Both the position numbers and the translations under genes were made by a program. From NCBI GenBank assembly GCA_016209895.1, contig JACQVH010000053.1, positions 1 through 62,367 on the forward strand: a DNA stretch of 62,367 nt. The letters are read 5' to 3'. Below are positions 6,286-41,482 of this stretch, piece after piece (the stretch's first letter is position 1; every line of letters begins with the position of its first letter). The notes beneath the pieces were generated by a model. The model worked only from the letters and a program-made list of their open reading frames with translations, did not search any database and was not told the DNA's origin. This DNA comes from Candidatus Hydrogenedentota bacterium (GTDB lineage Bacteria > Hydrogenedentota > Hydrogenedentia > Hydrogenedentales > SLHB01).

Positions 6286-6975
6286 TTACTCTTCCGCCCA
6301 CCACCGTTTCGACCACACTTCAACCGGCCGGTGATACTCGCTTCGGGCCAGGACCAGCGCCCGGTCCAGCGACAGCGTGCGTTCCTGGGCGATGAAATGC
6401 GTGCCCTGAGAGCCCGCCGGTACGACGGAGCCTTCAATCACTTCCAGGACTCCCCGCATGATGCAGTGACAGGTCGCGTCCGCGTAGGTACGTCCGGGCA
6501 CGTGGTCGCACGTGCGCAGGTCGCGGCTGCAGATGGAACATTCCGGCGTTTGGAACGAGAACCCGATCGAGGTCTCGCGATAGACGCCGCCCTCGATATT
6601 CAAGATGAAATCTTCATTCTCGCGGGTTCGAAGGACGTATACATCCGGTCGCGCGGACACGCGCTCGCCTTCTCGGTGCAATTGACAGCGAAAGAATGTC
6701 CCGCGCGGCAACGACCCGCGCAGATCGTGGCGCTCCATCAATGGCCGACCCGGGACCATCCGGTTGATCTTCTCCAATTCCTCTTCAGGAAATCGGCTGA
6801 AGTGCCGGTCCATTTGGTTGTGGCAAAGGTCAAGGGTAAACACTTCGAACTCTTCGCGCCGCAACGGTCGAAGCGCGAATACGTTGACTTCCTCGACCAC
6901 GGGGTCCGCGTCGTCCCGCGCGCGCATGCCGATCAGCACTCCCTCGTGCCGAAATATGAATGGGTCCAAGTTCAT
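6286..6975 (-). CDS. Prohead (head maturation) protease with Zn-finger insert (229 aa)
   Basis: ATG 6975 with a GAGGAG SD. LCHNQMDRHFSRF, MERH (His), GGVYRETSIGF (Ser), CSIC...C.H.PG..Y....C, IEGSVV (Glu). Confidence 0.85.
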   Translation of the reverse strand: MNLDPFIFRHEGVLIGMRARDDADPVVEEVNVFALRPLRREEFEVFTLDLCHNQMDRHFSRFPEEELEKINRMVPGRPLMERHDLRGSLPRGTFFRCQLHREGERVSARPDVYVLRTRENEDFILNIEGGVYRETSIGFSFQTPECSICSRDLRTCDHVPGRTYADATCHCIMRGVLEVIEGSVVPAGSQGTHFIAQERTLSLDRALVLARSEYHRPVEVWSKRWWAEE

Positions 6976-8539: not shown

Positions 8540-9088
8540 ATGCATCAAAACCTGTATGCTGGATGCCGATTCGCCTTAGGCATGGTGCTCTTCTTGGCTC
8601 TGGGCAGCTCGGCCCAAGCCGGGAGTTTTCAAGACGGACGGCTGCGCCTCGAAATCAACGGCGTCGGCGGAATTTACTCCGGAAAGACGGACCGTTCGGG
8701 CGATTACTACGTGGGCGGCTCCGTCGAGTACGAGTGGGCCGCGTTCAAGAAGGCCTCACTCGGGCTGCGGTTCTATCCCCTGTTCGTTTACCCGGAGCCG
8801 AAGCCGGTGTATGGCGTGGCCGGGGGTGTCACCGCGCGCATTTACAAGAATCAGGAAGAGCGCAATGGTCTCTTTGCGGAAGTGGGCTCCGCGGTGCTGT
8901 GGCACTCGCGCTATTTCAAGGAAAACAATTCCCGCATCAATTTCCTGAGTGAAATCGGCGTCGGCTACCAATTCCCCAAGAACGACTGGCATCTCGCCCT
9001 GAAGTACCACCACATCTCTAATGCCGGCCTCGCTTCCGAAAACGCCGGCATCAACGGTGTCGGCCTGAGCGTCGGATACAAATTCTAA
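8540..9088 (+). CDS. Outer-membrane acyloxyacyl hydrolase / lipid A 3-O-deacylase (PagL family)
   Basis: Signal peptide, alternating beta strands, YHHISNAG...NAGING motif, terminal Phe. Confidence 0.8.
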   Translation: MHQNLYAGCRFALGMVLFLALGSSAQAGSFQDGRLRLEINGVGGIYSGKTDRSGDYYVGGSVEYEWAAFKKASLGLRFYPLFVYPEPKPVYGVAGGVTARIYKNQEERNGLFAEVGSAVLWHSRYFKENNSRINFLSEIGVGYQFPKNDWHLALKYHHISNAGLASENAGINGVGLSVGYKF

Positions 9089-9152
9089 GATCGCCGCGCC
9101 CAGATTGGACACGCCCACCGAACTTCTGCCACCATCCCCGCCATGAATCATA

Positions 9153-9194
9153 AAGCCACCGGTAACCGGCCGCTAGTCACTGGTCACTAGCCAC
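9153..9194. repeat. Mosaic heptamer array (6 units) just upstream of the SSS start codon
   Basis: aagccac cggtaac cggccgc tagtcac tggtcac tagccac. Confidence 0.75.
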
Positions 9195-9199
9195 TACTC

Positions 9200-10897
9200 A
9201 TGCTCGGCATCAGCGCCTGGGACTGGTTTACCCTCTTCCTCTACCTCGTCGGCGTCACCGCGATCGGCGTGTGGTCGGCGCGCAAAGTGCACAACACCAC
9301 CGACTTCTTCATGGCCGGGCGACGCTTCGGCAAGCTCATGATGATCTCCTTCTCCTTCGGCGCCGGCACCAAGGCGGATGACGCGGTCGGTGTGGCCGCG
9401 AAAACGTACGTCAGCGGAATGTCCGGCATTTGGTATCAATGGCTGTGGCTTTTTTGCACGCCCTTCTATTGGCTAATCGCGCCCGTGTTCCGCCGGATGC
9501 GCGCCATCACCACCGGCGACTTCTTCGAGGCGCGATACGGCCCGAGCGTGACCGTCTTGTACGTGCTCGTCGGCATCCTGCAAATTACGGTAAACATCGG
9601 CGTCATGCTGCGCGGCTCGGCCGCCATCATCGAGTCCGTCTCCGGCGGTTCCATTTCCCAAGCTTGGGCCGTAACAATCATGACCGTGTTCTTCGTAATC
9701 TACGGTGTCGCCGGCGGGCTGGGCGCGGCTATCGTCACGGACTTTATTCAGGGCATCCTCACCATCGCGTTTTCCTTTATGGTGCTCCCGATAGCGCTGC
9801 ACGCCGTTGGCGGCATGTCCGGCCTGCGCGGGCAAATTGCGGACCCGCACATGTTCAGCCTGGTCACGCCCGGCGAGATCAATCGGTTCCACATCGTCAT
9901 GCTGGCTATCAACTCGCTGGTCGGGATCGTGACCCAACCCCACATGATGGGCGTGTGCGCGGCGGGTCGCTCGGAAATGAACGGACGCGTCGGCTTCGTC
10001 GGCGGCAATATCATGAAGCGGGTCTGCACCGTGGCCTGGATGCTGACCGGGCTGTGTGCCGTCGTGTTGTATCCCGGTCTCAAAGGTCCGGAAACGGACC
10101 TCGCGTACGGCAAAATGGCCCGCGATATTCTCCCCCAGATCGCGCCCGGCATGGTCGGAATCTTCCTGGCCGGCCTGCTCGCCTCGATTATGTCGTCCTG
10201 TGATGCGTTCATGGTTTCCTCTTCGGGTCTTTTCACGCAGAACATCTATCGGCGCCATCTGGCCCCGAACCGCACGGAGGCGCACTACCTCCAAGTCGGT
10301 CGCGTCGCGTCCGTCGTCATCGTCGCCGGCGGAATCGCTTTTGCGTTCTGGTTCAAGAACGTCGTGCACGGTCTCGAAACATTTTGGAAAATCATGGCCA
10401 TGATGGGTGTCGCCTTCTGGCTGGGACTGTTCTGGCGCCGCATGACGCCCGCCGGCGCCTGGACCGCTACGCTGGTCGCGTTCGCCGTACTGCTGCTCAC
10501 GAGTTCCGCGCCGTTCCAGGAGTTCGCGCGAGAAAAGCTGCCGGCCTGTATGCTGTGGGACGACCGATTCCGCATGTCGTGGCAAATCTTCAGCTATCTG
10601 ACGGCGGCGCTCATCTCAGGCGTCGTCGTTAGCGTCATTACACGGCCGATAGCCAAAGAACGCCTTGACCTGTTTTACCAATGCCTGCATACGCCATGCG
10701 CTCCCGGCGAGCCCGATGTTGCGCCGTTCACACTGCCGCCCGATGTGAAACCCTACCCCGTACGAAAGTTGATCCACCACCCGGATTTCGAAATTCCGTT
10801 CCCGAGCGCGATAAGCGTGCTGGGATTCGTGGTCGTCTGGCTGGTGGTCTTTGTGATGATCGCCTTCGTTTACTGGCTCGCACAACTTGGAGCCTGA
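9200..10897 (+). CDS. Sodium:solute symporter (SSS) family transporter
   Basis: About 13 TM helices; DFFMAGR, GGLGAAIVTDFIQG, LASIMSSCD motifs. Confidence 0.92.
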   Translation: MLGISAWDWFTLFLYLVGVTAIGVWSARKVHNTTDFFMAGRRFGKLMMISFSFGAGTKADDAVGVAAKTYVSGMSGIWYQWLWLFCTPFYWLIAPVFRRMRAITTGDFFEARYGPSVTVLYVLVGILQITVNIGVMLRGSAAIIESVSGGSISQAWAVTIMTVFFVIYGVAGGLGAAIVTDFIQGILTIAFSFMVLPIALHAVGGMSGLRGQIADPHMFSLVTPGEINRFHIVMLAINSLVGIVTQPHMMGVCAAGRSEMNGRVGFVGGNIMKRVCTVAWMLTGLCAVVLYPGLKGPETDLAYGKMARDILPQIAPGMVGIFLAGLLASIMSSCDAFMVSSSGLFTQNIYRRHLAPNRTEAHYLQVGRVASVVIVAGGIAFAFWFKNVVHGLETFWKIMAMMGVAFWLGLFWRRMTPAGAWTATLVAFAVLLLTSSAPFQEFAREKLPACMLWDDRFRMSWQIFSYLTAALISGVVVSVITRPIAKERLDLFYQCLHTPCAPGEPDVAPFTLPPDVKPYPVRKLIHHPDFEIPFPSAISVLGFVVVWLVVFVMIAFVYWLAQLGA

Positions 10898-26661: not shown

Positions 26662-26991
26662 ATGAGTGGGGCGATTATGGCGCCGGATGGGGAAAAAGCA
26701 GACGCAACTACCACACTCTCGGGCCCGCAAAAGGGTGATTTCATAGCGCCGCCGCCGGTCTCGGACACGGACGAGCGTGTGGACGCCGTGCATTACGTGG
26801 GCGACATCGTCGCCGACTTCTTCTGCGGCGGTGGCACGACTGCGGCGGTCGCGCAGCGGTCGGGTCGGCGTTGGATTGCATTTGATCAGTCGCGGGTGGC
26901 CGCGGCCATCACCATGGCGCGAATCGCCTGCAAAGTGCAGGATGACATGGGCGGCGAAGGACTTTGGGCCGGAGAGGTGGACGTAAAGTGA
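26662..26991 (+). pseudogene. C-terminal remnant of an N6/N4 DNA methyltransferase (Mod-like)
   Basis: DIVADFFCGGGTTAAVAQRSGRRWIAFD (SAM-binding motif I) with no catalytic DPPY region upstream. Confidence 0.8.
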
Positions 26992-28187
26992 GTGCTGTTG
27001 CGAGGTTTGAGTGGGTGAATCCAAGCTGTCTCAAGGAAGCCCGAGAACGACTTCGCCTAGCTCGCGAGGACGTCGTCGATCAAGCAAAGCATCTCGGCGA
27101 CGAATACGAGGGGATCACGCCAAGGGCCTTGGAATTGTGGGAGGCAGGTACCAAGGAGCCGGAACTCCGCCACTTGGAGGCGCTTTCGCAGATTTACGTC
27201 TGCCCGGTGGGTTGGTTCTTTCTTCCGAGTGTTCCAGCCGAGCCTTTTGCGCTCGATTTCCGTGGCGTAGCTCCAGGGGCGAAGGTTGGCGGGCGCGGTA
27301 TGCAGACACTTTCAAGATTCCTCGAACTCGCGGACTGGGCCGAGGAGCTGGCGATCCAAACCAGCCAATTCATCGCCACCCGCATCGGACAGACCAGCCT
27401 ACAAGATGAAATGTCCGAACTGGTGGCGGCTGAACGACGAAGACTTGGTTTTGATGCACGTATTCGCTCAACGTGGCATAGCAGCGATGACGCATTCGAT
27501 TGGTGGCGGCATCAAATCGAAGATTTGGGCATTTTCTGCTTTGTAATGCGCTTGCCTACCAGTGAGGTGCGCGGCGCTTCGTACTGGGGTAAGCGTGGAG
27601 CGGCGTTTATCCTGGTCAACAGTGAGGATGCCGAGGCCGCCACTGGACGAACCTTTACACTGCTGCACGAGTACGCGCACCTCATGCTCCACGAGAATCT
27701 CGTATGCGACTTCAGAGGTTCGAAAAACGGTGCCAAAATAGAACGGTTTGCCAACGGATTTGCCGCCGCGATGCTATTGGACCGTTCCGAATTGAGTGCA
27801 AGCCTTAAAGAGCTTGACGCTACCCAGTTTCGAAGCCAATGGGGGGACGCCATGCTGGACCGGATTCGTGAGCCATTCCGAGTCAGCCGTGATGTCGTCG
27901 CCATTTATCTGGAAGAACTCGGACTGGCCCCCAAAGGACTATACAACGAGAGGCGCGGCGTATGGTCAAAACGCAAGGCATTTGGAAGATCTGCCGCTGG
28001 CCGCGTTGGCCGTAATCTGACGGCGCAACGGTTGAGGATGGTCGGAAACACGCTTGCCAAAGTTCTTTCTTCAAAGCAGGCCGAAGCTACCTTGTCCGCT
28101 CTTGACCTTGCAGAAGTCTTGGATGTCAAGGTCGAAAGAGTTCCCGCCGTTCTGCAAGCCTTTAGACACGCTGGAGGCCATGGGTGA
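26988..28187 (+). CDS. XRE-HTH plus ImmA/IrrE metallopeptidase (399 aa)
   Basis: GTG 26988; N-terminal HTH (LKEARE..WEAG..EP..L..L); FTLLHEYAH (HExxH), E.FAN.FAAA.LL. Confidence 0.9.
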   Translation: MSAVARFEWVNPSCLKEARERLRLAREDVVDQAKHLGDEYEGITPRALELWEAGTKEPELRHLEALSQIYVCPVGWFFLPSVPAEPFALDFRGVAPGAKVGGRGMQTLSRFLELADWAEELAIQTSQFIATRIGQTSLQDEMSELVAAERRRLGFDARIRSTWHSSDDAFDWWRHQIEDLGIFCFVMRLPTSEVRGASYWGKRGAAFILVNSEDAEAATGRTFTLLHEYAHLMLHENLVCDFRGSKNGAKIERFANGFAAAMLLDRSELSASLKELDATQFRSQWGDAMLDRIREPFRVSRDVVAIYLEELGLAPKGLYNERRGVWSKRKAFGRSAAGRVGRNLTAQRLRMVGNTLAKVLSSKQAEATLSALDLAEVLDVKVERVPAVLQAFRHAGGHG

Positions 28188-29164: not shown

Positions 29165-30255
29165 TGACGACGAATCACACGAATCGGACGAATCGGGAAC
29201 GCTGGAACGCCGAAAAACAGCGCGTAGTTTTTTGTAGCGCCGCGGTTTTGGAGTGCGGGCGCTTGCTCCCGCTTTACCTGAGCGAGCTTGCTCGCGACCG
29301 GAGTCATTTGGCTATGGGTACGGGGAGCAAGTTCCCCTTGGAAAAGCGGCAGCAAGCTCCCGCAGTCCAAAGAGTGTGCGTCGGATGATTTGGTGTAAAC
29401 CAAGGTGTAAACCGAAACCGGGTAAACCGGGGACCTTACCCTGAATTTCATGCTCATTACTCGGCGGAGCGCACGCTGTCCGACACCCGAACACCGCCCT
29501 CTTACCCCGGTCAATCCGTTCATCCACGCTGAAGCCTGTCCCGCAACCCAAAGAACACAAAGGACCGCTGCTTCGCGGTAACTCACTCTGCACTTGTCCG
29601 CCTTTGGAGGATTCCGCTCTTGTCCGCCTCTGGAGGATTCCCACAGTCCTCTCTACAGTTTCTGACGAAATTGCAGAGAATCTTTTGCCCTTTTCAAGCG
29701 GCCGCCTGTACTGCAATCTATCGAGTTCTTGTTTTTTTGCGAAGATTTCTTGCGCAAGGTACAGCAAACAAACGTGTTATGACTGGCATTTCTTGGTGCC
29801 CTTCGTGCCTTGGTGGTTCATGCTTTATCCGAATCGCGGCCTTGGCCGCGCGAGGTTCGTTAGTGTCATTCGTGTGATTCGTGGTTACACAAATTTGGTT
29901 GCGGCCTTTGACCGCGCTGGGTAATTTTCGTCCTTTTGGCCTTTATAGCACGCCGAGTGCAACGCCCGGGGCTATATATATAGGGAGACTTTTCATCGTG
30001 GACCGTCAAAAAGCATTCCCGAGACCAGCCGACACTCGGACACGGGGCCATCTGCCTCGGTGTCCGTCCGCTCCGATCCGCGTCGCCCTGTCTCCGTCCA
30101 TGTCCGTCCGTGTCCGTCCACGTTCCATTCTTGGGAGAGAATCCTACAAAAATGTATCACGCTTTTGTACCGATTTTGACCGCTTTTGTACAACTTTGTA
30201 CCGATTTTCACGAAAAATGTCCGGTTTTATACCGCTTTTGTACCGCTTTTTCGCC
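29165..30255. repeat. Repeat-dense non-coding stretch: 9-mer arrays, an inverted REP-like pair, 24-mer copies and a 10-11-mer array
   Basis: acgaatcac acgaatcgg acgaatcgg; TGGAGTGCGGGCGCTTGCTCCCGCTTT ... AAAGCGGCAGCAAGCTCCCGCAGTCCAA (about 29249-29371); two cttgtccgcctYtggaggattcc; (cgcttttgtac)-like units at 30171-30250. Confidence 0.75.
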
Positions 30256-33878: not shown

Positions 33879-34069
33879 AGTTCTACCCTTTCCTAATTGT
33901 CTTACCACTTCATGCCCAAGAAAGACGCCTCCGCGAGACGAAACGCCCCTAGCATAAACACACCAGGCGGAACGGGTCAAGTGGGGTGTACTCGCTCCAC
34001 TGGAGAGACCAACAGTTGAAAAGCGTCAAGCCGGTTAGGACGGTGGCCAAACGAAGTTTGAGGATCTTA

Positions 34070-35215
34070 TCAGTCTTTGAACGCCTCCACAATTGAACGA
34101 AGCCAAGGTCGCGTCCAGCTCCCATCGTTAGCGCGTTCTTCCATGAATATTTCCAACTCATCGAGCTTCTTCCAGTTGTTGTCCGCCTCTTTAAGTAGTG
34201 CTTTTGCATTGAAATCGGTGGCGTTACATCGGTTTTCAAAATGGGCGAACCAGTACAGATACTGCCTCCAGCTCAGCCCGAGCCATGCGACACCGGGTCG
34301 CTTGTTGATTTGCTCAAGTATTTCCAGTGCGTAAGGATTCCCTAAGCTCGAAGAGGACAACAAGCCCGCCTCTTTCACGCGCATCAAGTCGGACTCTCTC
34401 AGGTAGGCCATCAGGGATTCCTCGAACCAGTAAGGTAATTGACCACCTCCACCTTCTTCGGGTGGTCCGAATCTCGAGGGTGTAAACCTACGGAGATTGT
34501 AGAACTTTCCGCTTGCACAGTCCCTTGCGCCGGCCACTTTCCAAAGGACAACGTCTGAAGCGACGAAAGCCACAAGAGTCCGAATACCTGAACCCTCGAG
34601 GAATCGGATAAGGCGCATCGCGCCCTTCAAATCTTCTGTCTCGTTCAATTCGCGGCGTGGCTCAAGATCCGAAAGCAACGCGAGGAAAACTCTCTGGCAC
34701 TCGCTCCCTGAGACAATTGACGCAATCTCGCCCACTTTGGAATCATTGGAAAGGTCCTCCAAACGCACGAGAACAGTTTGTAGGACCGCGATACCTGTCT
34801 GCTTAATCCTGCTTTGGAGATCGTCCGCTACCTCGCGATTCAAGCAGTAGTAAGATTCCGCGTATACTCGCGGCACTACCGCCGGGGAGCACACGGAGTG
34901 TGGGCGGAATCCCGCGACAGTTGTGATAAGACTTTTGTTGATGTCTTGCCACCAAGCTAAAGCCCTCAGGTCCCCGGTGTCGACATCGTCAGGAAAATAG
35001 TCCCAGCGCACGAGTGTTTCTCTTGCTGAGTTTGGGTAATACAACTGTGGGTCAAAAATCATCTCGAAATTTTCCGACCCGTGCTCCTCCACAATCCCTG
35101 CCGCTTGATCTACCTCGTAATTTACCGGGCTGAGAATAGCTCCCCTATAAGCCGACAATCGATCTTCGGACAGCAAGTTTTGTGAGTCGTGGCCCATCTG
35201 ATGATAGGCAGCCAT
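34070..35215 (-). CDS. Uncharacterised 381-aa protein, putative TIM barrel (T4 beta-protein/sce7725-like by inference)
   Basis: YHQMGH, GAILSP, IFDPQLYYP, ASG.F.NLRRF, GGGG..PY patterns; start coupled to the kinase stop (TAATG). Confidence 0.55.
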   Translation of the reverse strand: MAAYHQMGHDSQNLLSEDRLSAYRGAILSPVNYEVDQAAGIVEEHGSENFEMIFDPQLYYPNSARETLVRWDYFPDDVDTGDLRALAWWQDINKSLITTVAGFRPHSVCSPAVVPRVYAESYYCLNREVADDLQSRIKQTGIAVLQTVLVRLEDLSNDSKVGEIASIVSGSECQRVFLALLSDLEPRRELNETEDLKGAMRLIRFLEGSGIRTLVAFVASDVVLWKVAGARDCASGKFYNLRRFTPSRFGPPEEGGGGQLPYWFEESLMAYLRESDLMRVKEAGLLSSSSLGNPYALEILEQINKRPGVAWLGLSWRQYLYWFAHFENRCNATDFNAKALLKEADNNWKKLDELEIFMEERANDGSWTRPWLRSIVEAFKD

Positions 35216-36075
35216 TACGTGATTCTCTGTTTGGCCCAGGCTTCGTTAAGCTCCCCGGGCAAGCGAAATCTTTCGACTGGCCAAGGCCGGGTCATACGTT
35301 CCAGACAAGGGAGTCCACGGGCGGTGAACTTCGCGAGTATTTCCGCGTTCTGCTTTCCATATGTGGCAACGCGGTGGACCGTCTGGCCGTGAGTTTCTTC
35401 GGCACGAGAATACGGGTGTACACCAAACATTACCTCGCACAGAACAACGCCGAGGGCAAACTGGTCAGTTCGCCAATCAATAAGATGTTTCTTATTCGTC
35501 AGCTGTTCCGGAGCCGCATAGAGTGGCGTCCCAGGACCACGCGATTGCCAAGTTGTAGTAAGTGAAGAAGCTCCGAGGTCGCGAACTAGGCCGAAGTCAA
35601 CCAAAACAGGTGTTTCCCCATCTTGACGAAGCATTATGTTGTCGGGCTTTATGTCTCGATGCACAAGGCGGAGACTCGCTACGTGCAAGACGGCGGAAAT
35701 TAGGTGCGTACCTAGTGCCAGAATCTCGTTTCCACTCAGGCACCCACGCTCTGTAAGCCGAGATGTTAGTGATCCACCCGGAAGGTATTCTTCGACCGTT
35801 TAGTCGTATCGAACACCGTCGAGCTCATGCGTGCTGGCATCGAAAAGCCGGCCAATGTTCGGGTGATTACACCTTTGCAGTGCTTGGATTTCGCGATTTG
35901 TGCGGGGCTCGGACGCCGGCCCTTTGATGACCTTTAGCGCACGAAACTGACCCCCGCCCATTTGCACCTTGAACACGTTCTTGAAAGCGCCTCCACCAAC
36001 GTACTCAATGAACTGTAACTGTCCCGCCGCACAGATCGACTTCGCGGCTTTTTCCAGGTCGGTGTCTACCGGCAA
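35215..36075 (-). pseudogene. Hanks-type Ser/Thr protein kinase interrupted by one in-frame TAA (35800-35802)
   Basis: GGGAFKNVF, ALKVI, REIQAL..CNHPNI, then RYD*TVEEYLPGGSL in the same frame, HRDIKPDN, DFG, GT.LY.APEQ, DQFALG. Confidence 0.88.
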
Positions 36076-36533
36076 GCGCGGTCTCCCTTTCGCGCCTCAG
36101 TAACTGCCAGCTCAGATAGCCATGATTGAACCGGGTTCTGTTTTTTCGAGGGTAGAGCGATTACAATTTCGCCGTTTTCGATGTAGCACATTCCGACCTT
36201 GCGCCGTCCGAAATCATGGTGGAAACGCTGGGCACGCTGGGCGATAGACTTAGGGAGAACGACATAGGAATCATGGGCAAAACACGTGTTTCTGTACGCC
36301 TGCTCCAAGGCTCTTGGCCAATCTGTAAGTTTTGCTTCGAATGCCAGAATGCGACCATCGGGGTCCACGGCAATGACGTCAGTGCGACCCCGAAGATAGC
36401 TGAATTCTCTCACGTGACAAACCTTGCCCCATGGACAGGCTACTGATTCAAGAGCGTTGCAGAAATCAATGACGAGTTGGCTTTCGGATCTGTATATTGG
36501 TTTTACCGTTTCTGTCCCACGATTCTGCGGCAT
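36066..36533 (-). CDS. PD-(D/E)XK nuclease-fold protein (MmcB/sce7726-like)
   Basis: ESQL, REFSYLRGRTDVIAV, AFEAKL.DW..ALEQAY, SYVVLP; stop overlaps the kinase TTG start. Confidence 0.8.
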   Translation of the reverse strand: MPQNRGTETVKPIYRSESQLVIDFCNALESVACPWGKVCHVREFSYLRGRTDVIAVDPDGRILAFEAKLTDWPRALEQAYRNTCFAHDSYVVLPKSIAQRAQRFHHDFGRRKVGMCYIENGEIVIALPSKKQNPVQSWLSELAVTEARKGDRACR

Positions 36534-36570
36534 CTGTTCACCCCGGAGCGCATTTCCTATCTGCGATTAG

Positions 36571-36599
36571 CTTATACACCACAAGAGAATCTAGGTCAA
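36571..36599 (-). promoter_or_regulatory. sigma70-type promoter of the nuclease-kinase-TIM-barrel operon
   Basis: Minus strand TTGACC (36599-36594), 17-bp spacer, TATAAG (36576-36571). Confidence 0.65.
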
Positions 36600-36722
36600 G
36601 AGCCATGAGATCGATTCAGCACCATGTAGCCTCCCCTTGTCGCGCGACCTTGTAGTGAGGGCGAATGCTCGGCTAAGCTAACTAACGTTGGAGATTCTTC
36701 GCAACACTGGAACGAATGTATC

Positions 36723-38297
36723 GTGCCGACGTTGGATTGGATTGGGAAGAAGGCGGTACTGAATCATCATCGGGAGGTGCCGTTCCGTTTGTTGAAGACG
36801 GAACCGAGTCTGTCGGTGGGCGATCCGAATTGCGGGAATCTGTTGGTGCAGGGGGATAATCTGCATGCGCTGAAAGCGTTGCTTCCTTATTACGCGGGGC
36901 AAGTAAAGTGCATCTACATTGATCCACCGTACAACACCGGCAATGAGAATTGGACGTACAATGACGCCGTGAACAGTCCGGAGATGCGGGACTGGTTGGG
37001 GAAAGTCGTCGGGCGCGAAGCGGAGGACTTGTCCCGGCACGACAAATGGCTGTGTATGATGTACCCGCGGCTCTGCTTGTTGCGGCAGTTCCTGCGGGAC
37101 GACGGACTAATCTTCGTTCAAATTGGTCACGAGGAGTCGGCACATCTGAGATTGCTCCTAGATGAGGTATTTGGAACCTTCAGAAACGCGATAGTCGTGC
37201 GAAGAGGAATTAAGAATGTTCAAGCACAATTTGCGACTGTGGATTCATTGGCAAGCGCGCACGATTTGATTTATTGCTACTCTCGACGGCAGGGCCTTCG
37301 CATTCCCAGACTTCAACATGAATTAGGTGATAATGTCGCCGGCAAATGGGACACGTTTTGGCGCGGGACCGACCGGCCCACTATGCGTTACGATCTGTTT
37401 GGAGATAGACCCGAAACAGGACAATGGCGGTGGAAAGAAGAGAGGGCAAGGAGGGCCGTGAGGGCATACGAGGACTACCTGGCCACGTTTTCGCACGATC
37501 ATACGCTCGACGAATACTATGTCAAAATTCTTACAGAACAAGGTGTGGACCTGGATTTTGTGCGGCAAGACGAGAGCGGAACAGTGCAATACTATGTACC
37601 CCCGCGATCTTACAAGATCATCGGCGACGTGTGGATGGATGTGAGTACGTCCGGCACGGTCACTGATTTTCCACATGAGAAACACCTCGAATTGCTTGCG
37701 CGGATTCTGCAATGGGTCACGGGTCCAGAAGATATTATCCTTGACTCATTTGCCGGAAGCGGGTCTACCGCTCATGCGGTTCTCGAACTGAACAAAGCAG
37801 ATGCCGGAAACCGACGCTTCTTGCTTGTTGAAATGGATGAGCAAATCTGCAGGACGGTGACCGCAACACGGATTACGAAGCTCGTATCCGGCGGTACAAC
37901 TGATTTGCCCGGTCTGGACGGCGGATTCCGGTATGCGACCCTTGGCGAGCCGTTGTTCGATGCGAGCGGCAACATCCGGTCCGATGTTGGATTCGCGGAC
38001 TTGGCGGCGCATATCTTTTTCGTGGCGACGGGGGTGCCGTTGCCGAAACGGAAGAATGGCAAGACGCCGCTGCTGGGCGCGCACAATGGGGTAGGGGTTT
38101 ATTTGCTGTACAACGGCATCTTGGGGGATCAGACAAGCAACGGCGGCAACGTGCTGACGCGGGCGGTGTTGGAGCAATTGCCGCCGCATGACGGAACCAA
38201 GGTGATTTATGGGACGGGCTGCCGCATTGGGGCAGACCGGTTGAAGCGAGACAACATCGTGTTCCGGCAGATTCCGTATCACGTGAGGGTGGAGTAG
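36723..38297 (+). CDS. mod: Type III R-M adenine methyltransferase (Mod)
   Basis: MPTLDWIGK, GDNL.ALK.L, CIYIDPPYNTG, IILDSFAGSGST.HAV motifs. Confidence 0.92.
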   Translation: MPTLDWIGKKAVLNHHREVPFRLLKTEPSLSVGDPNCGNLLVQGDNLHALKALLPYYAGQVKCIYIDPPYNTGNENWTYNDAVNSPEMRDWLGKVVGREAEDLSRHDKWLCMMYPRLCLLRQFLRDDGLIFVQIGHEESAHLRLLLDEVFGTFRNAIVVRRGIKNVQAQFATVDSLASAHDLIYCYSRRQGLRIPRLQHELGDNVAGKWDTFWRGTDRPTMRYDLFGDRPETGQWRWKEERARRAVRAYEDYLATFSHDHTLDEYYVKILTEQGVDLDFVRQDESGTVQYYVPPRSYKIIGDVWMDVSTSGTVTDFPHEKHLELLARILQWVTGPEDIILDSFAGSGSTAHAVLELNKADAGNRRFLLVEMDEQICRTVTATRITKLVSGGTTDLPGLDGGFRYATLGEPLFDASGNIRSDVGFADLAAHIFFVATGVPLPKRKNGKTPLLGAHNGVGVYLLYNGILGDQTSNGGNVLTRAVLEQLPPHDGTKVIYGTGCRIGADRLKRDNIVFRQIPYHVRVE

Positions 38298-38344
38298 CCT
38301 TGGGCTATAATGGAATGTAAGCGATTGTCCGCGGAGAACACCCG

Positions 38345-38575
38345 ATGACACTAAAGGAACGAATTGAGATCAAGACGGACGTGCTGGGCGGAAAACCCGT
38401 GGTTCGGGGTACGCGTCTGGCAGTGGAGTTCATCGTTGACTTGCTCGCCGAGGGATGGACCCACGAGCAGATACTGCGCAACTATCCGGGGCTGCAGGAG
38501 GAAGACATTCGCGCCTGCCTGCGCTACGCCGGCGAGATGCTGCGCAGCGAGAAGCTGTACCCGGTTGGAGCCTGA
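38345..38575 (+). CDS. DUF433-family antitoxin
   Basis: LGGKPVVRGTRLAVEFI..LLAEG.T.E.IL..YP.L..EDI.ACL.Y signature. Confidence 0.92.
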   Translation: MTLKERIEIKTDVLGGKPVVRGTRLAVEFIVDLLAEGWTHEQILRNYPGLQEEDIRACLRYAGEMLRSEKLYPVGA

Positions 38576-38578
38576 GGA

Positions 38579-41350
38579 TTGCGGATTCTGGCCAATGAAA
38601 ATATCCCCGGAGACGCGGTGGCTGCGCTGAGGGCGCGGGGGCATGACGTGCTGACACTTAAGGACTATCAGCAAAGGGCGCTCGATTCATTGTCGGCGTA
38701 TTTTGCCGATTGCGCGCGGACGGGGGACGCGGACACGGCCTTCTATGAAGCTACGCGGCGCGAATTCCGGACGGGTATAGCTTTCCAGCCGGTACGAGAA
38801 TTACCGGGTCTGCCTTATGTTTGCCTGCGGATTCCCACCGGCGGCGGCAAGACGCTGATGGCGTGTCATGCGGTATCCATCGCGGCGCGGGACCTCTTAC
38901 ATGCCGATTACCCCGTAGTGCTGTGGCTCGTGCCGTCCAACGCCATCCGCGAGCAGACGCTCAAGGCGCTGCGCGATCGCCATCATCCGTATCGGCAGGC
39001 GCTGGAGGCGACCTGCGGGAGCATCGAGGTGTTGGACGTCGGCGAGGCGCTGTATGTCACCCGCGCAACCTTGGACGCGCAGACGACAATCATCGTCGCC
39101 ACCATGCAGGCGTTCCGCGTGGAAGACACGGTGGGGCGCAAGGTGTACGAGCATAACGGCACCGGCTTGATGTCGCATTTTTCGGGCCTCTTACCTGAAC
39201 AAGAACCGGGTCTCCAACGCGGGGAAGGCGGCTACAAACTGTTTTCTCTGGCAAACGTTCTTCACCTGCGCCGTCCCGTTGTGATTGTGGATGAGGCGCA
39301 TAACGCGCGCACCGGGTTATCGTTTGAAACGCTGGCGCGGTTTAATCCTTCTTGCATTCTGGAATTCACGGCCACGCCGGACCGGGAAAGGAATCCGAGC
39401 AACATTTTGCACAGCGTGTCAGCCGCGGAATTGAAGGCCGAGCACATGATCAAGATGCCGATTCGCCTGGTGACCCGGCTCAATTGGAAGGAGCTTCTGT
39501 CAGACGCGGTATCGTGCCGGGAGAAACTGGAGCGCGCGGCAAATATGGAGCGCCAAGCGACGGGCGAGTACATCCGGCCCATCGTGTTGATACAAGCGGA
39601 AGCGCACAGCAAAGAGCGGCCGACGATCACGGTGGAGACTATTCGGGAATGTTTGCTGGAAGACCATAGAATCCCGGACGAGCAAGTGGCGATTGCGACA
39701 GGGGCCAAGAACGAACTGGACGGCGTGGACGTGCTGAGCGCGGAGTGTCCTATCCGGTTCATCATCACGATGCAGGCGCTGCGCGAGGGTTGGGATTGCC
39801 CCTTTGCGTATGTGCTTTGCAGCGTGGCGGACCTCCGGTCTTCGACGTACGTCGAGCAAATCCTCGGGCGCGTTATGCGACTGCCCAGGGCGGCGGAGAA
39901 AACTCGCGAGGAATTGAATGTGGCGTATGCGTATGCCTCGTCGTCTTATTGGCAAACGGTAGCAAATGCGCTGACCGACGCCCTCGTCAAGGTGTACGGT
40001 TTTGAAAAACAAGATGCCAAGGATTTGATAGTGCCTCCTTCAGAGTACGAGACCGGGTCCCTTATCGAGGAATTTATGGGCACTTACACCGAAGTGCTGA
40101 TTGAAGCGCCGAAAAGCGACCCGCTACCCAGTTGCCTGGAAGGAAAGGTCTCTTTTGATAGCGTGCCCACGAGTAAAGGGGAATCGGTCAACCGGGTCAT
40201 GTACCAAGGCTCGATGTCGGCGGAGGAACGAGAGCTTTTGAAGACGTGTGTCAACTCAGACGCGGATAAGGCGGCCATCGATCGGCTATTCCAGCGGATA
40301 AACCATCCTTCTCAAGTGGGCGAGGGCGGAAGGAAGACTCGGGAGCCGTTCTCGATTCCGATACTCGCGATTAGGCAGGGAACAATCTTCGAGCAATTGG
40401 AAGAGACGCATTTTCTGGATAGGCCGTGGGATTTGGCCCGGTGCGATGCGACCTTGTCTGGGCAAGAGTATTCAACGGAAGCGCCGCAACCTCAAACCGG
40501 GGACATTGACGTTTCGGAAGACGGGGTAGTTAAGGCCCGCTTCATTGCAAATCTACACGATCAGATGGCGTTACTCGTCAGCGAGGACCGATGGTCGGCG
40601 GGCCAGTTGGTGCGATGGCTGGATAGCCACATTCCACACCTGGATATCACGCAGACCGAGTCCGGTGTTTTTCTTACGCGCGCGGTTCAGGGCCTTCTTG
40701 ATAGGAGGGGAATATCGTTGTCCGTCCTGGTACACGACAAGTATCGGCTTAGAACCGCGCTGGACGCGAAAATAGACGGTTACCGGCAAAGCGCTCGGCA
40801 AACCGCTTTCCAGGCGCTGCTCTTGCCGGAGTGTGAGACCCCGCTGGTGGTAACCCATGAGAAGTGCTTTTCGTTCGACCCGACTCAATACCCATTTAGT
40901 CGCCGCTACAAGGGGTCATACGTATTTCGAAAGCACTTCTACGAAGACGTGGGCGATTTGAACAGCGAAGGGGAGGAGTTCGAGTGCGCTCAATTCCTTG
41001 ATAAATTGGAGGAGGTCGAGACGTGGGTGCGGAATCTCGAACGCCGCCCGCACCAATCGTTCTGGCTCCAGACGGCGACAGACCGGTTCTATCCAGACTT
41101 TGTCTGTAAGTTGAAGGACGGCCGGTTTCTGGTAGTGGAGTATAAAGGGGCGTATCTGGCAGAAACGCCGGACAGCCGGGAAAAGCGCGCCCTGGGGGAA
41201 TTGTGGGAAGAACGAAGCAACGGCACGTGTCTATTCGTGATGCAAACGGGGAAGAATTTCGCCGCGATCGAGGCGAAGATTACCGCGGGCAAACCGAAGC
41301 GAAAGGGGCGCGGCGGATATTCGACCGCCGATTTGATCGAAAAAGACTGA
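38579..41350 (+). CDS. res: Type III R-M Res subunit (SF2 helicase plus PD-(D/E)XK nuclease); the first 23 codons derive from a DUF5615 PIN toxin
   Basis: LKDYQ, IPTGGGKT, VDEAH, EFTATP, LREGWD, QILGR..R, FYPDF..VVEYKG; native GTG start at 38648. Confidence 0.9.
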   Translation: MRILANENIPGDAVAALRARGHDVLTLKDYQQRALDSLSAYFADCARTGDADTAFYEATRREFRTGIAFQPVRELPGLPYVCLRIPTGGGKTLMACHAVSIAARDLLHADYPVVLWLVPSNAIREQTLKALRDRHHPYRQALEATCGSIEVLDVGEALYVTRATLDAQTTIIVATMQAFRVEDTVGRKVYEHNGTGLMSHFSGLLPEQEPGLQRGEGGYKLFSLANVLHLRRPVVIVDEAHNARTGLSFETLARFNPSCILEFTATPDRERNPSNILHSVSAAELKAEHMIKMPIRLVTRLNWKELLSDAVSCREKLERAANMERQATGEYIRPIVLIQAEAHSKERPTITVETIRECLLEDHRIPDEQVAIATGAKNELDGVDVLSAECPIRFIITMQALREGWDCPFAYVLCSVADLRSSTYVEQILGRVMRLPRAAEKTREELNVAYAYASSSYWQTVANALTDALVKVYGFEKQDAKDLIVPPSEYETGSLIEEFMGTYTEVLIEAPKSDPLPSCLEGKVSFDSVPTSKGESVNRVMYQGSMSAEERELLKTCVNSDADKAAIDRLFQRINHPSQVGEGGRKTREPFSIPILAIRQGTIFEQLEETHFLDRPWDLARCDATLSGQEYSTEAPQPQTGDIDVSEDGVVKARFIANLHDQMALLVSEDRWSAGQLVRWLDSHIPHLDITQTESGVFLTRAVQGLLDRRGISLSVLVHDKYRLRTALDAKIDGYRQSARQTAFQALLLPECETPLVVTHEKCFSFDPTQYPFSRRYKGSYVFRKHFYEDVGDLNSEGEEFECAQFLDKLEEVETWVRNLERRPHQSFWLQTATDRFYPDFVCKLKDGRFLVVEYKGAYLAETPDSREKRALGELWEERSNGTCLFVMQTGKNFAAIEAKITAGKPKRKGRGGYSTADLIEKD

Positions 41351-41391
41351 CGCCCATTGCGCGAGACCGTGTAGGCGGGCGGGCAAAATCA

Positions 41392-41482
<91 letters not shown>

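Follow-up and report, generated by a model that had tools for sequence, protein, structure and literature searches.

Layout and conservation of the three-gene cassette

The window, a stretch of 62,367 nucleotides (nt) from a Candidatus Hydrogenedentota bacterium (contig JACQVH010000053.1, positions 1 to 62,367), contained an operon of three minus-strand open reading frames (ORFs), which lay head to tail from position 36533 to position 34070. The ORFs, designated genes A, K, and C, encode a predicted PD-(D/E)XK nuclease, a Hanks-type Ser/Thr kinase, and a predicted TIM-barrel protein, respectively. The same trio was found in unrelated genomes and is almost certainly a conserved mobile unit. The features of the operon were as follows.

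36571..36599, minus strand: promoter-like hexamers, TTGACC (36599..36594), a 17-nt spacer, and TATAAG (36576..36571), read directly from the sequence
36066..36533, minus strand: gene A, predicted nuclease of 155 residues, ORF intact
35215..36075, minus strand: gene K, Hanks-type Ser/Thr kinase of 286 codons, a pseudogene in the window
35800..35802, minus strand: in-frame TAA (Tyr92 to stop), cutting the kinase after the N-lobe
34070..35215, minus strand: gene C, predicted (β/α)8 TIM-barrel protein of 381 residues, ORF open
33926..33940, minus strand: terminator-like hairpin with a T-tract, ~130 nt 3' of the gene C stop, a consensus match only

The three genes were tightly coupled. The last 10 nt of gene A were shared with gene K, which started with TTG; the nearest relative (locus L087) had ATG at the same position. 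The stop codon of gene K and the start codon of gene C had one base in common (TAATG, 35213–35217). The layout, the coordinates, and the coupled junctions (36066/36075; TAATG at 35215) had been described in an initial annotation of this DNA, made from the sequence alone, and all were correct. The promoter-like hexamers were located ~38 nt 5' of the gene A ATG, which was also preceded by a Shine-Dalgarno-like GGGGTGA. The initial annotation had assigned these hexamers to a sigma70 promoter. The TTGACC-17-TATAAG letters were indeed present, but a consensus promoter scan did not call the site because the −10 hexamer lacked the final T, and the promoter-like sites in the region were not above shuffled expectation (4 vs 1.7 ± 1.4). 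The number of terminator-like sites in the region was not above that of the shuffles.

Homologues of gene C were collected from 185,579 species, each represented by one genome, in a pattern scan that gave 71 loci. When these loci were searched by tblastn with genes A and K, the order A-K-C, with A and K directly upstream of C, was found in ~63 of the 71 loci and in at least 15 phyla. Co-occurrence of the three genes elsewhere, on which the initial annotation had made its proposal depend, was thus observed, and the same order and tight coupling in so many unrelated genomes indicate more than chance. The hosts belonged to the Planctomycetota, Chloroflexota, Acidobacteriota, Actinomycetota, Armatimonadota, Myxococcota, Desulfobacterota, Verrucomicrobiota, Bacillota, Bacteroidota, Ignavibacteriota, Nitrospirota, Pseudomonadota, and candidate phyla. 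At the usual junctions, the stop and start codons overlapped by 1 or 4 nt or were separated by a few nt. The exceptions to the A-K-C order were contig ends, a permuted order C-A-K in two loci (L011 and L012), an inverted gene A downstream in one locus (L015), and a few decayed copies. A "truncated kinase" in L075–77 was a gene-caller artefact with an intact ORF. Apparent frameshifts in L037, L047, and L065, which are metagenome-assembled genomes with MFD names, were not counted as decay, as long-read indel errors were suspected.

In the locus survey, the kinase of this family was always accompanied by the nuclease and the TIM barrel. When 705 flanking ORFs of at least 100 residues were clustered, none occurred in more than three loci; because of this, the cassette is taken to consist of exactly three genes, travelling and evolving together. 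The pairwise-identity matrices of A, K, and C correlated with r values of 0.76–0.83 (Mantel p 0.001), and the mean pairwise identities were 40, 42, and 44%, respectively.

The only recurrent small ORF was a divergent gene of 65–78 residues, resembling ribbon-helix-helix (RHH) proteins, in seven proteobacterial loci. It adjoined the 5' side of gene A (L046 6419–6631; also L049, L050, L055, L057, L058, and L066, at about 6330–6660). The strand-helix-helix pattern of its product (…LVQLTLPVEVDAALE…SKSEVVVTLL…) suggests that, in the proteobacterial branch only, the cassette has a ribbon-helix-helix regulator.

Nuclease, kinase, and TIM-barrel protein

The PD-(D/E)XK, Ser/Thr kinase, and TIM-barrel folds named in the initial annotation were supported by AF2 models and Foldseek for genes A and C, and by Pfam for gene K. 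Gene A is predicted to be a stand-alone PD-(D/E)XK nuclease. Its AF2 model had a pLDDT of 93.5 and matched PD-(D/E)XK folds, and residues E43, D52, E66-x-K68, and Q78 were invariant in a 31-sequence alignment. The best Foldseek match was SPO1766 (PDB code 3dnx, from structural genomics), with an E value of 5e-7 and TM scores of 0.65/0.69. Further matches were NucS/EndoMS, SfsA, Exo5, Cas4, and Card1/Can2. A sequence search of the PDB gave only noise at E ~1, including the C-terminus of an 866-residue "protein kinase domain-containing protein" (8w7l), and was not used.

Gene K belonged to the Pkinase family (PF00069), with an E value of 6e-35 and a score of 121.3 bits against a gathering cut-off of 31.7. 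The motifs ALK (β3 Lys), REI (αC Glu), HRDIKPDN, DFG, and PE were kept across 63 homologues. The protein was a bare catalytic domain with no sensor or regulatory domain. Its closest solved structures were the basophilic CaMK, PAK, RSK, and SGK kinases. The PADLOC matches, mad6 (6e-41, the best match) and PD-T4-6 (1e-35), covered the kinase domain only.

In the window, gene K was interrupted by the TAA at 35800–35802, and this codon, already pointed out in the initial annotation, was identical in contigs of two independent groundwater-metagenome runs (X1 and X2; compared at contig level). The corresponding column of the 63 homologues contained Y (23), F (16), and V (11). The nearest relative, L087, read ...GVQYDYTIEEF... 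where the window read ...GVRYD-stop-TVEEY..., which placed a tyrosine opposite the stop. Because the stop was present in two independent assemblies, in a Y/F/V column, and opposite Tyr in the nearest relative, it is a real TAY to TAA nonsense mutation, and the window kinase is a pseudogene. The practical message for this genome is that its copy of the cassette is predicted to be inactivated, dead or crippled, because the kinase holds Tyr92 to TAA.

Gene C is predicted to form a TIM (β/α)8 barrel. The AF2 model of the 381-residue protein (pLDDT 87, pTM 0.88) had eight β/α units followed by a C-terminal Trp/Arg-rich helical domain, and it matched 60 TIM barrels of the PDB at E ≤1e-3. By Foldseek, only generic barrels were found (PdxJ, HpaI/HpcH and deoxyribose-phosphate (DERA) aldolases, TIM, and AP endonuclease 2), with E values of ~1e-4 and TMq of ~0.35. 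The best full-length superposition was with a tRNA-guanine transglycosylase (TGT; 7b2i_C, TMq 0.51), and phage TGT-like proteins were among the BFVD matches.

Near-invariant residues of gene C were located at the C-terminal ends of the strands: Q6-G8-H9, S29-P30-N32, D55-Q57-Y59, S110-P111, R187-E189, D221-K226, and G236-K237-N240, forming the motifs QxGH, SPxN, DPQxY, SP, RRE, D..WK, and GK..N. Such polar residues after every barrel strand are characteristic of enzymes, and the lining of the barrel with Arg, Lys, Asp, and His suggests a phosphorylated or nucleotide substrate. Residues 240–258 formed the sole low-confidence segment (pLDDT 45–49), a disordered lid loop with a GGGQ turn. Among 238 sequences of this loop, R242 was kept in 236, R243 in 230, T or S at position 245 in 217, and R248 in 236, which gives a near-invariant RRx[T/S]..R motif.

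The gene C family contained 1203 homologues of a uniform length of ~380 residues, in 761 clusters at 50% identity, all labelled "hypothetical" and with no Pfam family. When the gene C profile was compared with 1.84 billion representatives, only the family itself was present among the 150 matches listed, with no bridge to a known family. A sequence search of the PDB gave one marginal match (CutA, E 0.006), which was not significant and was not used, and an exact-protein look-up of the gene C product of the window returned no record.

Genomic setting, mobility, and natural knock-outs

The cassette and a type III restriction-modification (R-M) system, which was divergent from it, formed a ~7.4-kb island of lower guanine-cytosine (GC) content (about 34000–41400) adjoining tRNA-Ser(CGA). 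The GC content was 0.51–0.55 over the operon and the adjacent methylase, compared with 0.59–0.66 in the flanks. The lower GC content, the divergent R-M system, and the nearby tRNA had all been recorded in the initial annotation and were found again here. The neighbouring features were as follows.

36723..41350, plus strand: divergent type III R-M system, outside the cassette, with Mod, a DUF433 gene, and Res
36723–38297, plus strand: Mod (N6_N4_Mtase), type III R-M context
38345–38575, plus strand: DUF433 gene, between Mod and Res
38579–41350, plus strand: Res (ResIII), type III R-M context
41392–41482, minus strand: tRNA-Ser(CGA), bordering the island

A search between 33300 and 41700 for an att-like direct repeat matching the tRNA-Ser end found none, so the island borders were set by GC content only. 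An Rfam scan found tRNA only. The type III R-M system was not a recurrent neighbour at the other cassette loci. The first ~34 codons of its Res ORF matched the N-terminus of DUF5615, after which the ORF continued into the type III Res helicase. DUF5615 is the usual PIN-like partner of DUF433. The segment 38345–38660 looks like either a truncated DUF433/DUF5615 toxin-antitoxin (TA) pair lodged between mod and res, or a res ORF whose start was called too far upstream.

The farther flanks were occupied by ordinary chromosomal genes, including GH20-like and GH38 glycosidases and a symporter. A 407-residue protein with an IrrE/ImmA-type Peptidase_M78 domain was encoded at 26964–28187, ~6 kb from the cassette. 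Regulators of this type are common on mobile elements and beside defence genes. A region of ~800 nt without a convincing gene (29587–30249) contained several short repeat families: a 26-nt tandem pair at 29587–29638, GTCCGTCC-type repeats at 30048–30119, and five overlapping TGTACCGnTTT-type copies at 10–11-nt (helical) spacing at 30166–30249.

At the other loci, the cassette was repeatedly associated with mobile DNA. It was present on plasmid pPNAP03 of Polaromonas naphthalenivorans, where the RefSeq labels were "serine/threonine-protein kinase" and "hypothetical protein"; this was the single occurrence among 72,556 bacterial plasmids. In L082/L083 (7700–20700), it was located within an integrative and conjugative element (ICE) with a RepB primase, ParA, a relaxase, an ArdC/PolyVal metallopeptidase, a TraG coupling protein, and SSB. 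One locus had the cassette beside an MmeI-type methyltransferase and a PLD-SNF2 helicase, between two integrases; another had it beside AAA_13 and a transposase, and a further one beside IS110. A tRNA (Ala, Glu, Leu, or Arg) was directly beside the cassette, at ~200–650 nt, in 4 of 60 loci (L016 9361–9434; L026 6450–6525; L033 6094–6175; L050 6016–6092), compared with about one expected by chance. These loci echo the tRNA-Ser beside the island of the window.

A divergent trio was found in the archaea, on a plasmid of the haloarchaeon Natribaculum breve (CP095393; L079 5420–8887). Its proteins were a 230-residue A-like protein, a 285-residue kinase, and a 400-residue C-like protein of 22% identity, which had Asp in place of the bacterial T/S245. 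The trio was directly followed by a gene for a 229-residue calcineurin-like metallophosphoesterase, possibly a reset phosphatase.

The 148 nearest neighbours of 69 loci included three integrases, two AAA_21 proteins, AbiEi/AbiEii, AbiD, a type I restriction endonuclease, a dCTP deaminase, and an HNH protein, as well as mad3 (two), mad8 (two), PDC-M71A, and PbeA. The cassette was not found in 50,697 phage records of GenBank, in 2.9 million IMG/VR contigs, or in PHROGs. Its carriers are cells, with their integrative or conjugative elements, and not phages. The neighbourhoods point to an accessory module that is mobile and has some affinity for defence islands, which is not proof of defence.

Four loci carried natural knock-outs. 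In the window, gene K had the nonsense mutation and genes A and C were intact. In L044 (Promineifilaceae; 8845–10071), gene C was split by the gene of a 408-residue IS256/mutator-type transposase, with A and K intact. In L068, gene C ended after ~131 residues, with unrelated high-GC DNA beyond it, and K was intact. In L019, gene K was truncated and gene A was lost. Turnover of this kind, with repeated gain and loss, is typical of accessory genes for immunity that are costly to keep, and it fits an inducible, often-lost system.

Proposed function and comparison with known systems

The cassette is read here as a self-contained, horizontally mobile three-enzyme conflict module, directed against phages or other mobile genetic elements (MGEs) in the manner of abortive infection, with a probability of roughly 55%. 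All three proteins keep catalytic-looking residues, and the cassette occurs rarely and with a patchy distribution among phyla.

A number of observations weigh against this reading. The defence role is drawn from genomic context and sequence, which make it plausible at about that level. The 148 nearest neighbours belonged mostly to housekeeping families, each found once. R-M, Abi, MADS, integrase, IS, or ICE genes were present in a minority of the neighbourhoods, and in several cassette loci the nearest 10 kb contained neither defence nor MGE genes. The likeness of gene K to mad6 and PD-T4-6 carries no functional information, because these matches were no better than those to the generic Pkinase or PknB. 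The structural matches of gene C were generic (TMq 0.35–0.5) and do not reveal its chemistry. Genes A, K, and C evolved at similar moderate rates, and the lack of a fast-evolving sensor surface is unusual among systems that sense phage proteins. Position 245 of gene C was occupied by V or A in a few members and by D in the archaeal protein, and the RRx[T/S] loop might just as well be a lid that binds the phosphate of a substrate.

For a conflict module, the following working scheme is proposed. The three proteins would probably form one complex with the kinase as the switch. The trigger is probably a conserved cue, such as ends or structures of invader DNA that the nuclease detects or a nucleotide that binds to the barrel; a conserved cue is favoured over a fast-evolving phage protein because none of the three proteins is hypervariable. 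The cue would activate the kinase, and the kinase would switch on its partners, most likely through phosphorylation of the RRx[T/S] lid loop, a flexible segment above the active site of the barrel, and may phosphorylate other targets too. As output, the nuclease would cleave DNA, the barrel would convert an essential phosphorylated metabolite or nucleic acid, or both, and the activated barrel and nuclease would halt replication. Phosphorylation of the TIM barrel had been one of the suggestions of the initial annotation. The loop is a candidate phospho-acceptor because the solved relatives of the kinase are basophilic and the archaeal homologue has Asp at this position. Lid-loop phosphorylation is advanced tentatively, at perhaps one chance in a handful. 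The same caution applies to the wider picture of a cross-domain immune module, shared by Bacteria and a haloarchaeal plasmid, in which a bare Hanks kinase might gate a new TIM-barrel family via the RRx[T/S] loop and, with a minimal nuclease, lead to abortive infection; the barrel, whether it depletes nucleotides or metabolites or acts on DNA, would bring a chemistry new to bacterial immunity.

An accessory module for DNA repair, damage tolerance, or DNA modification, in which a kinase controls a NucS/MmcB-like nuclease and a barrel of AP-endonuclease-IV-like, DERA-like, or TGT/DpdA-like (base exchange) character, is unlikely. It would account for the top structural matches of gene A, with the repair nuclease NucS/EndoMS coming after 3dnx, and for the presence of deoxyribose-phosphate aldolase, AP endonuclease family 2, full-length tRNA-guanine transglycosylase, and phage TGT-like proteins among those of gene C. 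The even rates of A, K, and C would fit housekeeping-like chemistry. However, the very sporadic spread (71 of 185,579 species), the fully variable flanks, and the association with MGEs speak against such a role. Gene C had no Pfam TGT, AP_endonuc_2, or DeoC match at E ≤1, the TGT zinc motif was absent, and no modification partner, such as a methylase or a ParB-like DpdB, recurred.

A TA or addiction module that stabilises mobile elements, with the nuclease or the kinase as toxin and a partner that restrains it by modification, as in type VII TA, is a little more improbable still. In type VII TA, the antitoxin phosphorylates or adenylylates the toxin, and kinase toxins (HipA) and nuclease toxins are well known. 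The compact, translationally coupled, and mobile cassette (plasmids, ICE) and the divergent RHH-like regulator of the proteobacterial branch agree with this idea. The natural knock-outs oppose it: gene K was lost singly in the window and gene C was destroyed singly in L044 and L068, so no single component acts as an indispensable antidote, and a simple TA reading is weakened. Furthermore, three full-size enzymes with conserved active sites are atypical for TA pairs, and the cassette was found on only one of the 72,556 bacterial plasmids.

An ordinary signalling or metabolic operon, in which the kinase regulates a sugar-phosphate TIM-barrel enzyme with no genetic conflict, is very improbable: the best Foldseek matches of gene C were metabolic barrels (PdxJ, HpaI/HpcH and DERA aldolases, TIM) and many neighbours were metabolic genes, but the barrel is obligately paired with a protein whose PD-(D/E)XK motif is intact, no metabolic neighbour was conserved, and the spread was patchy across phyla and domains and included ICE and plasmids.

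If the cassette is a conflict module as favoured here and acts in defence, it would be a rare further example of phosphorylation-based immune signalling in prokaryotes, with three enzymatic parts, and would provide the first functional context for the TIM-barrel family. It is ~2.5 kb long and self-contained, and its carriers include cultured strains of Burkholderia arboris, Polaromonas naphthalenivorans, Undibacterium terreum, and Rubrobacter marinus. Its small size and cultured hosts make the hypothesis directly testable.

When the trio was compared with the models of PADLOC 2.0, NCBIfam (20.0, 2026), Pfam, and PHROGs, only the kinase had matches, and none were found for gene A or for the family of gene C. 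This agreed with the initial annotation, which could not name the trio as a system. No description of the trio was found in the open-access text searched, and a description elsewhere is possible. CapK/CapS, with a GHKL-type kinase (PMC13373217), is not this trio, and the trio was not described among the DefensePredictor systems (PMC13092281), in the Dnd reappraisal (PMC10853773), or in the papers on PD-T4-6.

The initial annotation had cited the co-occurrence of sce7726-like nucleases with beta-protein-like TIM barrels as a precedent, and this claim was not upheld. In phage P4, the gop-beta-cII genes are likewise three, with beta annotated in RefSeq as "beta family protein" and cII as "sce7726 family protein", and the D..E-x-K motif of cII lined up with that of gene A by hhalign. 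However, P4 has gop and no kinase. Gene A had no NCBIfam sce7726 match at E ≤1, and its hhalign probability against P4 cII was 0.5%, covering 48 columns around D..ExK only. Gene C, tested with the window protein and five divergent or archaeal members, had no match to Beta_protein (PF14350) at E ≤1, whereas P4 beta, the positive control, matched at 4e-56; the profile-profile probability by hhalign was 0.18%.

The likeness of gene C to TGT/DpdA was at the fold level only (TMq 0.51). The E value was ~1e-3 with a root-mean-square deviation of 8 Å, no Pfam TGT match was found at E ≤1, the alignment lacked the Zn-binding CxCxxC..H cluster, and no Dpd partners recurred in the flanks. Gene A shared its fold and catalytic constellation with NucS/EndoMS, Cas4/Exo5-type nucleases, and SPO1766 (3dnx). 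It differed from these as a minimal domain of 140–155 residues, without the N-terminal domain of NucS or the Fe-S cysteines of Cas4/Exo5, and sequence profiles did not link it to the NucS, Cas4/Exo5, or SPO1766 families.

Among kinase-containing systems, MADS was close in that Mad6 was the top PADLOC match of gene K and that mad3 and mad8 homologues were located beside the cassette in two other loci. However, Mad6 has ~610–660 residues compared with 286 for gene K, which scored 83.9 bits against a cut-off of 460 for NCBIfam NF047741. Genes A and C matched no PADLOC mad model, and no other mad genes were found in the window. Gene K was also distinct from PglW of BREX type 2, with 65 bits against at least 990 for NF033442 and a length of 286 residues, and no PglX or PglZ was found in the window. 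The PknB equivalog cut-off of NCBIfam was missed by a large margin.

Stk2 of Staphylococcus epidermidis is reportedly (Depardieu 2016) a defence that consists of a single kinase gene. PD-T4-6 of E. coli is a single-gene Ser/Thr-kinase defence as well (PMC9519451). Gene K resembles both as a Hanks kinase with all catalytic motifs. It differs from them as an obligate member of a trio, and its match to the PD-T4-6 hidden Markov model (1e-35) reflected generic kinase likeness, so that the cassette was not assigned to PD-T4-6. From its sequence, the cassette appears to be a new, unnamed trio, with nuclease and TIM-barrel families that had no annotation, of a known kind, the kinase-containing conflict cassettes. 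Kinase-driven abortive infection, as exemplified by PD-T4-6 and Stk2, would be the best available analogy for how it works.

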